This document shows positions 33,273 through 34,475 of a stretch of DNA of 64,000 nt, one piece after another (within the stretch, counting starts at the first letter, position 1; every line of letters starts with the position of its first letter). The notes beneath the pieces were generated by a model that saw only the letters and a list, made by a program, of their open reading frames with translations, searched no databases and was not told where the DNA came from. The DNA comes from Dictyostelium discoideum (taxonomy: Eukaryota), in contig CM000154.2 of NCBI GenBank assembly GCA_000004695.1, forward strand, positions 3,488,001 through 3,552,000, read 5' to 3'. The translations under genes and the position numbers were made by a program.

Positions 33273-34475
33273 TTAATTATCAAAAATCAATGATGTGTCA
33301 GCATCAAGGTTATTACTGATAAAAGCAAACCCATTTATTAAACCTATTGATAGAGCACCAGTATAGAATTTCTTCAAGCCATATTGTTTGTAAACTTTAA
33401 TAGCCATTGAGATTGGATTTATAACAATAGGAATTGGTGAACCTGAAAGGTATGATTGAACAAATTCATTAGAATATTGATAACGTAACATGAATAATGG
33501 CCAATTTAAAGCGGTTGTTATGAGAGTACTTGTAATTTTGTTACAAACCAATAAAGAAAGGTTTTTATAAATTTTTGAATTTGGATTCTCTTTTTCTTTA
33601 TCTTGAATTTTCTTTTGGAGTGCTCTTTGAGAAATTTTAATTAGTTTAGTTGTTCCATACAAAAATAAACTTGGCAAGAATGCATGGAAAAGGTTCTTAT
33701 ATTGTAAACCATTACCTTGATCCTCTCTTAAAATGATCTTTTTAATGATTTGAATTAATGGCATAGAAAATGGGGCAACACTAATAACATTGGTAAGAAA
33801 TTTCAATGGATACATTAAAAGACTATATGCAGAAGCGGAAGCAACAACTTTAAGAGGTCCTTGACTCCATTTGGCACCTACAAAACCACCGAGGGCCATT
33901 TCATCAATTACAACGATTAATGTTGCAAAAACATTTTCAATTACTAGAGGTCTAACCATTAAAGAGGTGACACCACCATGTTTGTAAATTGATTTTACAA
34001 TTGATGAAAGGGTTGAATTACTTTCGAATTTTGAAAATTGACGTGTAATTAATTCGATTGGAGGATATGAAAAAAATAAAAAACCATATTTAATCATTTC
34101 TAATATTCTTTGGTTTTGTAATTTTTTAAAATTTTGTTTTTCTTGTTCACTTAATTTTTTAAAGAATTGTTCATTATAAAGTTGTCTTAGATTTGGATCA
34201 CTTAAAATATTATAAGCTTCAGTAATTATTACATTGAAATCTGTAAAGTGTTTTCTCTCCTCTGGTGATTGACTGTTATCAATAGTTCTTTGATTGGTTT
34301 TAATAATTGCAACATATGTTGCCTTTAATTCTGCTTCACTAATTTCGTGTTGTTGTTGTTGTCCATCTTGTGTAAAATATTTATACAATTCTCCTAATCT
34401 AGAACAACATTTTTGAATGGTTTCAATATCTTGATTGATATCCAAAGTTGTTTCTACTTCAATTATTTTTGGCAT
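33273..34475 (-). CDS. membrane protein with N-terminal HPD-less J-like domain and degenerate mitochondrial-carrier-like triple repeat, 400 aa
   Basis: ATG 34475 with A-rich leader. Residues ~45-115 resemble a J domain (..EAYNILSDPNLRQLY..), but the HPD tripeptide is replaced by TNQRTID. The C-terminal 250 aa contain three ~80-aa repeats with hydrophobic helix pairs and degenerate Px[DE]xx[KR]-like starts (YPPIELITR, YPLKFL, NWPLFMLR). Confidence 0.55.
   Translation of the reverse strand: MPKIIEVETTLDINQDIETIQKCCSRLGELYKYFTQDGQQQQHEISEAELKATYVAIIKTNQRTIDNSQSPEERKHFTDFNVIITEAYNILSDPNLRQLYNEQFFKKLSEQEKQNFKKLQNQRILEMIKYGFLFFSYPPIELITRQFSKFESNSTLSSIVKSIYKHGGVTSLMVRPLVIENVFATLIVVIDEMALGGFVGAKWSQGPLKVVASASAYSLLMYPLKFLTNVISVAPFSMPLIQIIKKIILREDQGNGLQYKNLFHAFLPSLFLYGTTKLIKISQRALQKKIQDKEKENPNSKIYKNLSLLVCNKITSTLITTALNWPLFMLRYQYSNEFVQSYLSGSPIPIVINPISMAIKVYKQYGLKKFYTGALSIGLINGFAFISNNLDADTSLIFDN

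Follow-up and report, generated by a model that had tools for sequence, protein, structure and literature searches.

An HPD-less J-like domain joined to a degenerate carrier fold: the Dictyostelium protein DDB_G0289991 and its family

A 64,000-nucleotide stretch of the Dictyostelium discoideum AX4 genome (the window; GenBank assembly GCA_000004695.1, contig CM000154.2, positions 3,488,001 to 3,552,000) was analysed, with the focus on one gene of its minus strand. The open reading frame (ORF) at 33273..34475 is a complete single-exon coding sequence (CDS) of 400 amino acids plus stop with an ATG start, according to the ORF list and an exact-sequence look-up. Its product is identical to D. discoideum AX4 XP_635945.1 (DDB_G0289991; UniProt Q54GQ7), which is automatically named 'J domain-containing protein' in UniRef and is listed as hypothetical by NCBI. 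DDB_G0289991 is a two-domain membrane protein, in which an HPD-less J-like domain is followed by a linker helix and a degenerate six-helix SLC25 fold. At about 20%, the G+C content of the window is in the usual range for dictyostelids; that of the CDS is 28%. Literature searches by identifier returned no mention of DDB_G0289991 or of its AX4 paralogue DDB_G0285611.

The protein begins with an acidic lead, MPKIIEVETTLDINQDIETIQKCC (residues 1-25; 34401..34475, minus strand), which was delimited from the sequence, its retention in the orthologues and the predicted local distance difference test score (pLDDT) of an AlphaFold model built from a 19-sequence alignment. This segment is net negative and therefore not presequence-like, and its first 10 residues are disordered in the model. 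The J-like domain occupies residues 26-104 (34164..34400, minus strand) and adopts the four-helix J fold in the model: helix I carries GELYKYF (residues 28-34 in the family alignment), helix II spans residues 47-67, helix III residues 71-92 and helix IV residues 94-103, with ITEAYNILSDPNLRQLYNEQF at residues 84-104. An earlier, sequence-only reading had placed a J pattern at residues ~45-115; the helix III-IV motif is indeed present in the sequence, whereas the span should be shifted to ~26-104, starting from helix I. The same reading had noticed TNQRTID in place of the catalytic HPD, and this was confirmed by the alignment columns and the model secondary structure, since residues 60-66 (34278..34298, minus strand) fall at the (H)HPD site of the relatives. 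In the family alignment, the HPD of the relatives corresponds to Q62..I65-D66, with H replaced by Q, P replaced by I, and a two-residue insertion; helix II runs on through TNQRTID in the structure model. The HPD tripeptide between helices II and III is absent from the DDB_G0289991 protein and from all eight close orthologues. Taken alone, the protein scores 16.5 bits (E=0.009) against Pfam DnaJ, under the gathering threshold of 27.8 bits. A search of the PDB sequences with the single protein reached J domains only at a sub-threshold E of ~0.4, and the profile of the eight orthologues did no better.

A charged linker (residues 105-125; 34101..34163, minus strand) leads into the membrane half, and is modelled as an unbroken helix that continues into transmembrane helix 1 (helix 105-147). 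The remaining helices in the model are h12 (156-166), H2 (169-195), H3 (207-233), h34 (240-248), H4 (266-296), H5 (313-343), h56 (354-365) and H6 (374-388); together with H1, which ends at residue 147, the six long and three short helices form a carrier barrel, and the fold match extends over 220-230 residues. Three repeats were delimited from the model and the alignment, all on the minus strand. Repeat 1 (R1, residues 126-204; 33864..34100) contains P-I-E-L-I-T on H1, the helix at 156-166, a degenerate G-motif GGVTSLMVRP, and H2. Repeat 2 (R2, residues 205-296; 33588..33863) is the most divergent, with Y-P-L-K-F-L-T-N on H3, the short helix at 240-248, and H4. Repeat 3 (R3, residues 297-388; 33312..33587) is the best conserved (0.88 among the orthologues) and is also supported by Pfam; it includes W-P-L-F-M-L-R-Y-Q on H5, NPISMAIKVYKQYGLKKFYTG with the short helix and the G-motif, and H6. 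The C-terminal tail (residues 389-400 and the stop; 33273..33311, minus strand) is poorly conserved among the orthologues and of low pLDDT confidence, and ends in a conserved IFDN.

The Pfam Mito_carr match of the DDB_G0289991 protein alone (14.5 bits, E=0.029) is also under its gathering threshold of 22.3 bits. It covers residues 345-375; the Mito_carr matches of the relatives land on repeat 1. Profile comparison of the repeats by hhalign aligned R1 with R3 in register (P=9e-6, 83%), and was weak for repeat 2 (P=0.004 for R1-R2 and P=0.012 for R2-R3). BLAST comparison among the three putative repeats of the single sequence gave nothing significant. On the odd-numbered helices, the Px[DE]xx[KR] motif is incomplete in three of three cases (PIELIT on H1, PLKFLT on H3, and PLFMLR on H5), and the helix-kink prolines are all retained: P223 and P326 are invariant throughout the family, and P139/140 is nearly so. 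No [YF][DE]xx[KR] motif was found on H2, H4 or H6 when the sequence was read against the model helices; H2 ends in ..VVIDEMAL, H4 carries LYGTTK with the acid lost, and H6 contains ..GFAFISN. The degenerate carrier-like triple repeat of the sequence-only reading is thus recovered as a six-helix model with three proline-led motifs in the C-terminal 275 residues, with good agreement between R1 and R3 and a weak R2.

The homologues of the protein provide the decisive evidence for both domains. A word-indexed search revealed eight close relatives, all from Dictyostelium, with 50-94% identity. An HMMER search of 1.84 billion cluster representatives with the profile of these eight gave 16 clusters (weakest E=1e-4; lengths 233-453 amino acids). 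The named clusters all belong to the genus Dictyostelium (D. discoideum, D. cf. discoideum, D. citrinum, D. dimigraforme, D. firmibasis and D. purpureum), and one further cluster is environmental. Among the eight close orthologues, weak Pfam matches were found in all eight for DnaJ and in seven for Mito_carr. Several relatives exceed the cut-offs: the DnaJ cut-off is passed by P0012 (71.3 bits), P0020 (63.6), P0011 (59.2) and P0018 (34.4), and the Mito_carr cut-off by P0014 (38.1 bits), P0012 (32.2), P0020 (31.7), P0022 (26.7), P0013 (25.1), P0018 (24.5) and P0010 (24.3). Both PF00226 and PF00153 have already been assigned to two relatives by automatic annotation. Moreover, the 19-sequence family profile matched solved J domains in the PDB over their full length, with E down to 3e-14. 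The profile of the membrane half gave 12 PDB matches, all of them SLC25 proteins, including AAC (9.3e-5), an MTCH2 chimera (2.2e-4), yeast AAC3 (3.4e-4), UCP2, GGC1, OGC and UCP1. A phmmer search of the PDB with the membrane half of the relative P0014 returned zero matches, and a word-indexed search with the 19-sequence alignment gave mostly generic DnaJ or low-complexity candidates and missed members of its own query.

The two-domain architecture is established because homology is transitive via these relatives: in the single protein the fusion of a J-like and a carrier-like part is marginal, whereas the relatives clear both Pfam cut-offs. The Pfam check that had been proposed for the two families was favourable once the homologues were used, and the structure prediction gave a J fold and a six-helix carrier fold; profile matches to both families and a topology suited to six helices were therefore found. 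The family descends from a true J-domain-carrier fusion, and comprises the genus Dictyostelium and one environmental sequence. This account of the anatomy and family history of the DDB_G0289991 protein is regarded as very probably correct. The parts are of known kinds (J-like domains and degenerate SLC25 folds); a description of their combination could not be found, as literature searches for J-domain/carrier fusions returned no account of it or of the DDB_G0289991 family. The combination had first been called unrecognised, which agrees with these searches; it is not unique to this gene, as it defines a small Dictyostelium family that is partly annotated automatically.

Within the family, HPD is kept only in P0011, P0012, P0020/P0025, P0032 and P0035. 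In a rough midpoint-rooted neighbour-joining tree, these members group in one clade, in which each species has a single copy, together with the environmental sequence. The AX4 member of this clade is XP_002649165.1 (C7G004), which is annotated as 'heat shock protein DnaJ family protein' and has RKHHPDKQQ and a basic helix II. The AYxILSDxxLRxxYD motif of helices III-IV persists in all members without HPD. Only on H5, and there in some members (e.g. PLEVIR), does the family have a canonical Px[DE]xx[KR]; it is never seen on H1 or H3. DDB_G0289991 sits in one of several HPD-less branches that are duplication-prone and fast-evolving, and in its lineage the acidic residue of H5 and the first Gxxxx[FY][KR]G motif have disappeared as well. 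It is the most eroded branch of the family in both domains.

The HPD-bearing environmental member (P0025/P0020) was observed on contigs of ~1.2 kb (L003-L007) in at least five samples, with the gene spanning them from end to end. Its CDS has a G+C content of 37%, with 32% at third codon positions, compared with the CDS G+C of 28% for DDB_G0289991. It is probably a transcript from an organism outside the genus Dictyostelium, and nothing else suggests that the family extends beyond that genus.

An acyl-CoA oxidase (ACOX) gene lies directly upstream of DDB_G0289991 on the same strand (35290-37011, minus strand, in the window). The two genes are likewise neighbours in another D. discoideum isolate (locus L002, with ACOX at 156-2334) and in D. 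cf. discoideum (locus L001, with ACOX at 783-3022). A functional link to this peroxisomal-type acyl-CoA oxidase was considered and rejected, since adjacency is weak evidence in eukaryotes and synteny was its sole support. D. cf. discoideum has two tandem copies of the J-like/carrier gene (L001, 3564-4739 and 6001-7194), and the locus tags indicate an adjacent paralogue in D. citrinum too (P0009/P0006). A truncated copy of 233 amino acids (P0008) is found beside P0003. No tandem paralogue was found by tblastn in the 64-kb window of AX4, where the DDB_G0289991 locus holds a single copy. A separate observation concerns assembly GCA_054859385.1 (locus L002), labelled D. discoideum, whose synonymous divergence (dS) from AX4 is ~0.07-0.10 at two adjacent genes; this is high within one species.

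The ratios of nonsynonymous to synonymous divergence (dN/dS, Nei-Gojobori) are 0.24 for AX4 versus P0001, 0.49 for AX4 versus P0002, and 1.09 for the tandem copies P0002 versus P0004. The adjacent ACOX exon gave 0.05 and 0.15 in the matching genome pairs. The values for DDB_G0289991 are 3-5 times those of ACOX, which indicates that the gene is constrained but relaxed. The J-like segment reached ~0.8-1.2, calculated from only 1-5 synonymous differences. These data might also be read as those of a decaying duplicate of the HPD-bearing gene, which is under relaxed constraint and has little or no function of its own. Such decay would account for the two domains being the most eroded of the family, for dN/dS of 0.24-0.49 against 0.05-0.15 in the neighbour, ~1.1 in the tandem copies and ~0.8-1.2 in the J-like segment, for the truncated P0008 by P0003, and for a copy number that differs between close species. 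However, the full-length ORF is intact in each sampled species, down to 63% identity, and the overall dN/dS of the orthologues is below 1. Conservation among the orthologues is highest in repeats 2 and 3. These repeats and the helix III-IV motif contain long blocks that hardly vary; IIKKIILREDQGN and NPISMAIKVYKQYGLKKFYTGA are nearly invariant, and the synteny with ACOX is also conserved. A gene in mere decay thus appears unlikely.

The preferred reading assigns a function to the whole family. It was reported that J domains need HPD to bind Hsp70 and to stimulate its ATPase, and that HPD-less J-like domains such as that of Pam16, the partner of Pam18, are non-stimulating and can pair with and regulate an HPD-bearing partner (PMC12953747). 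Since HPD is required for Hsp70 stimulation, the DDB_G0289991 protein would not be a catalytic co-chaperone. No complete Px[DE]xx[KR] motif is present on the odd helices, and a matrix-gate salt bridge is thus not expected; judged from these residues, the protein is unlikely to be an alternating-access solute transporter of the classical type. The J or J-like domain is N-terminal to H1, and is therefore on the cytoplasmic side of the carrier fold, opposite to the three short helices. We know of no Hsp70 in the intermembrane space. The HPD clade must meet Hsp70, and the simplest placement would therefore have the cytoplasmic side of the carrier fold facing the cytosol. Candidate membranes for the family are the outer membrane of mitochondria and the membrane of peroxisomes, by comparison with MTCH2 or the PMP34-type carriers. 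SLC25 members without canonical motifs have been found in both of these places, and MTCH2 is an insertase (PMC9674023). At the organelle membrane, cytosolic Hsp70 would be recruited and activated by the members with HPD, whereas the DDB_G0289991 protein would most likely be a non-catalytic partner, modulator or specialised variant, which shares the membrane scaffold or the client site. By analogy with Pam16 and Pam18, it possibly pairs with the HPD-bearing paralogue C7G004.

Comparison with known systems showed both similarities and differences. The DDB_G0289991 protein shares with the membrane-anchored class C J-domain proteins (PF00226) the helical J fold, the AYxILSDxxLRxxYD motif and a membrane anchor. 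A complete J domain, with HPD and a basic helix II, is seen in its relatives, whereas DDB_G0289991 has TNQRTID and a sub-cut-off score. To our knowledge, no membrane J protein is anchored by an SLC25 fold, and none with such an anchor was found in the literature searches. Both Pam16 (Tim16) and DDB_G0289991 are HPD-less J-like folds that coexist with an HPD-bearing relative as a potential partner; however, there is no sequence relationship between them, they differ in the membrane part and in the expected compartment, and the pairing would be an analogy. Compared with the SLC25 carriers (AAC, UCP1 and OGC; PF00153), the DDB_G0289991 protein has an incomplete matrix-gate motif on all odd helices and no visible cytoplasmic-gate motif, is below the Pfam cut-off, and carries the N-terminal J-like domain. 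Its carrier fold has lost Px[DE]xx[KR], as in the outer-membrane insertases MTCH1 and MTCH2 (for MTCH2: PMC9674023). The family profile matches MTCH2 about as well as it does true carriers; a J domain is lacking in MTCH2.

Several points weigh against the preferred reading. Repeat 2 has almost no sequence-level carrier signal and is missed by Pfam in every family member, so its assignment depends mainly on the fold match. An AlphaFold run with eight sequences gave a pLDDT of 40, and AlphaFold may favour a familiar fold. The dN/dS near 1 in the J-like segment and the tandem duplicates, where the counts are small, could mean decay of the J-like domain rather than its repurposing. The cytosol-facing placement is suggested by a topology argument only. 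The analogy with Pam16 has no sequence support, with no Pam16 match in the Pfam scan at E<=10. The functional model, namely a cytosol-facing membrane-embedded J/J-like family in which the HPD form recruits Hsp70 and the form in the window is non-catalytic, is consequently held as tentative, somewhat short of an even chance. As a whole, anatomy and function together are considered the best explanation, with a probability of about 0.5.

The family might alternatively be a chaperone-coupled insertase or receptor for membrane proteins that resembles MTCH2, in which a carrier fold with a hydrophilic groove open to the bilayer receives Hsp70-bound α-helical membrane-protein clients delivered by the J domain, and the HPD-less paralogues are specialised or regulatory. 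An SLC25 fold without canonical motifs is a stated hallmark of MTCH1/2 (PMC9674023), and the J domain is on the face of the fold expected to point to the cytosol. The longest single-stretch PDB match of the family profile is also to MTCH2 sequence (105 columns, E=2.2e-4), with YPLKFLTNVISV aligned to YPFVLVSNLMAV; however, this match is no better than that to AAC (9.3e-5) and is offset by one repeat. MTCH2 orthologues were reported only in Holozoa (PMC9674023), and an amoebozoan analogue is therefore conceivable. Restriction to one genus and tandem duplication, with dN/dS of 0.25-1, would be surprising for an essential biogenesis factor, although this objection is weaker for the single-copy HPD clade. 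Such an insertase accordingly seems improbable. In its most specific form, the proposal would be a chaperone-coupled SLC25-fold machine, perhaps a mitochondrial or peroxisomal insertase or receptor resembling MTCH2, whose own J domain captures Hsp70-bound membrane-protein clients, with C7G004 as the active form and the HPD-less paralogues as regulatory or substrate-specialised forms. This machine is quite improbable; if it were true, the carrier fold would have been reused for protein biogenesis independently, outside the Holozoa, and for the first time with a co-chaperone built in.

A specific relationship to MTCH2 was rejected as unproven, as the match to the chimera 12oy (E=2.2e-4, versus 9.3e-5 for AAC) is one repeat out of register. 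In the solved MTCH2-UCP1 chimera chains of PDB entries 12oy, 12oz and 12pb, the MTCH2 segment LTYPFVLVSNLMAVN resembles the H3 motif of the family, MYPLKFLTNVISVAP; the resemblance is local only and one repeat off.

A working solute carrier, with the N-terminal J-like domain as a regulatory appendage, was also considered. The Ca2+-regulated aspartate/glutamate carriers and the ATP-Mg/Pi carriers have N-terminal regulatory domains, which is a precedent for this arrangement. Moreover, the model shows a complete barrel of six helices together with three short ones, the helix-kink prolines are kept (P223 and P326 invariant, P139/140 nearly so), and repeats 2 and 3 are well conserved among the orthologues. 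However, Px[DE]xx[KR] is incomplete on three of three odd helices, which makes the inter-repeat matrix-gate salt bridge impossible; the first G-motif is destroyed (GGVTSLMVRP), and no [YF][DE]xx[KR] is seen on H2, H4 and H6. The family consensus is canonical on H5 only, dN/dS is 3-5 times that of the neighbouring metabolic gene, and an HPD-bearing J domain in the intermembrane space would find no Hsp70 as far as we know. Solute transport is thus very unlikely. An inner-membrane J-like protein of the import-motor type, with its J-like domain in the matrix like Pam16/Pam18, is hardly credible: the HPD-less J-like domain and the HPD-bearing paralogue in the same genome mirror that pair, but no Pam16 similarity appears in Pfam at E<=10, the N-terminus is acidic without a presequence and is opposite to the short matrix helices, so that a matrix J domain would need an inverted carrier, and the best J-domain matches of the family are of the class A/B/C DnaJ type rather than Pam18.

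J-domain proteins determine the sites and the substrates of Hsp70 action. For a long time the SLC25 fold was viewed as purely one of metabolite transport, until MTCH2 showed its reuse for membrane-protein insertion. The joining of a J domain to such a fold in degenerate form suggests that cytosolic Hsp70 is physically and directly linked to a carrier-derived membrane module. The series from canonical HPD to HPD-less members within one genus might also be used to study how J domains turn into J-like pseudo-co-chaperones. Dictyostelium is genetically tractable, and the proposal is therefore directly testable. This significance is limited in that the family is genus-restricted and fast-evolving, DDB_G0289991 is its most eroded branch, and the functional statements are all inferred.

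Other ORFs of the window were also noted. The neighbours include a PUF/pumilio protein with a weak CCCH zinc-finger match (27625-30414, plus strand), an FNIP-repeat protein (37827-39203, minus strand), a class I methyltransferase (41568-42446, minus strand) and a myotubularin-like phosphatase (44204-47518, minus strand). Three long ORFs have no Pfam match at E<=1e-5: 17805-20045 (minus strand, 746 amino acids), 23088-24671 (plus strand, 527 amino acids) and 56496-60014 (plus strand, 1172 amino acids). The 70-amino-acid ORF at 31863-32075 (minus strand) consists of poly-N, poly-K and poly-F runs, and has almost certainly arisen by chance in an AT-rich spacer. Two large paralogous ORFs on the plus strand (4521-7445 and 9217-12546) both contain DUF7035, DUF7034, DUF7949 and the ComC supersandwich domain, and are an apparent tandem pair of ComC-like proteins.

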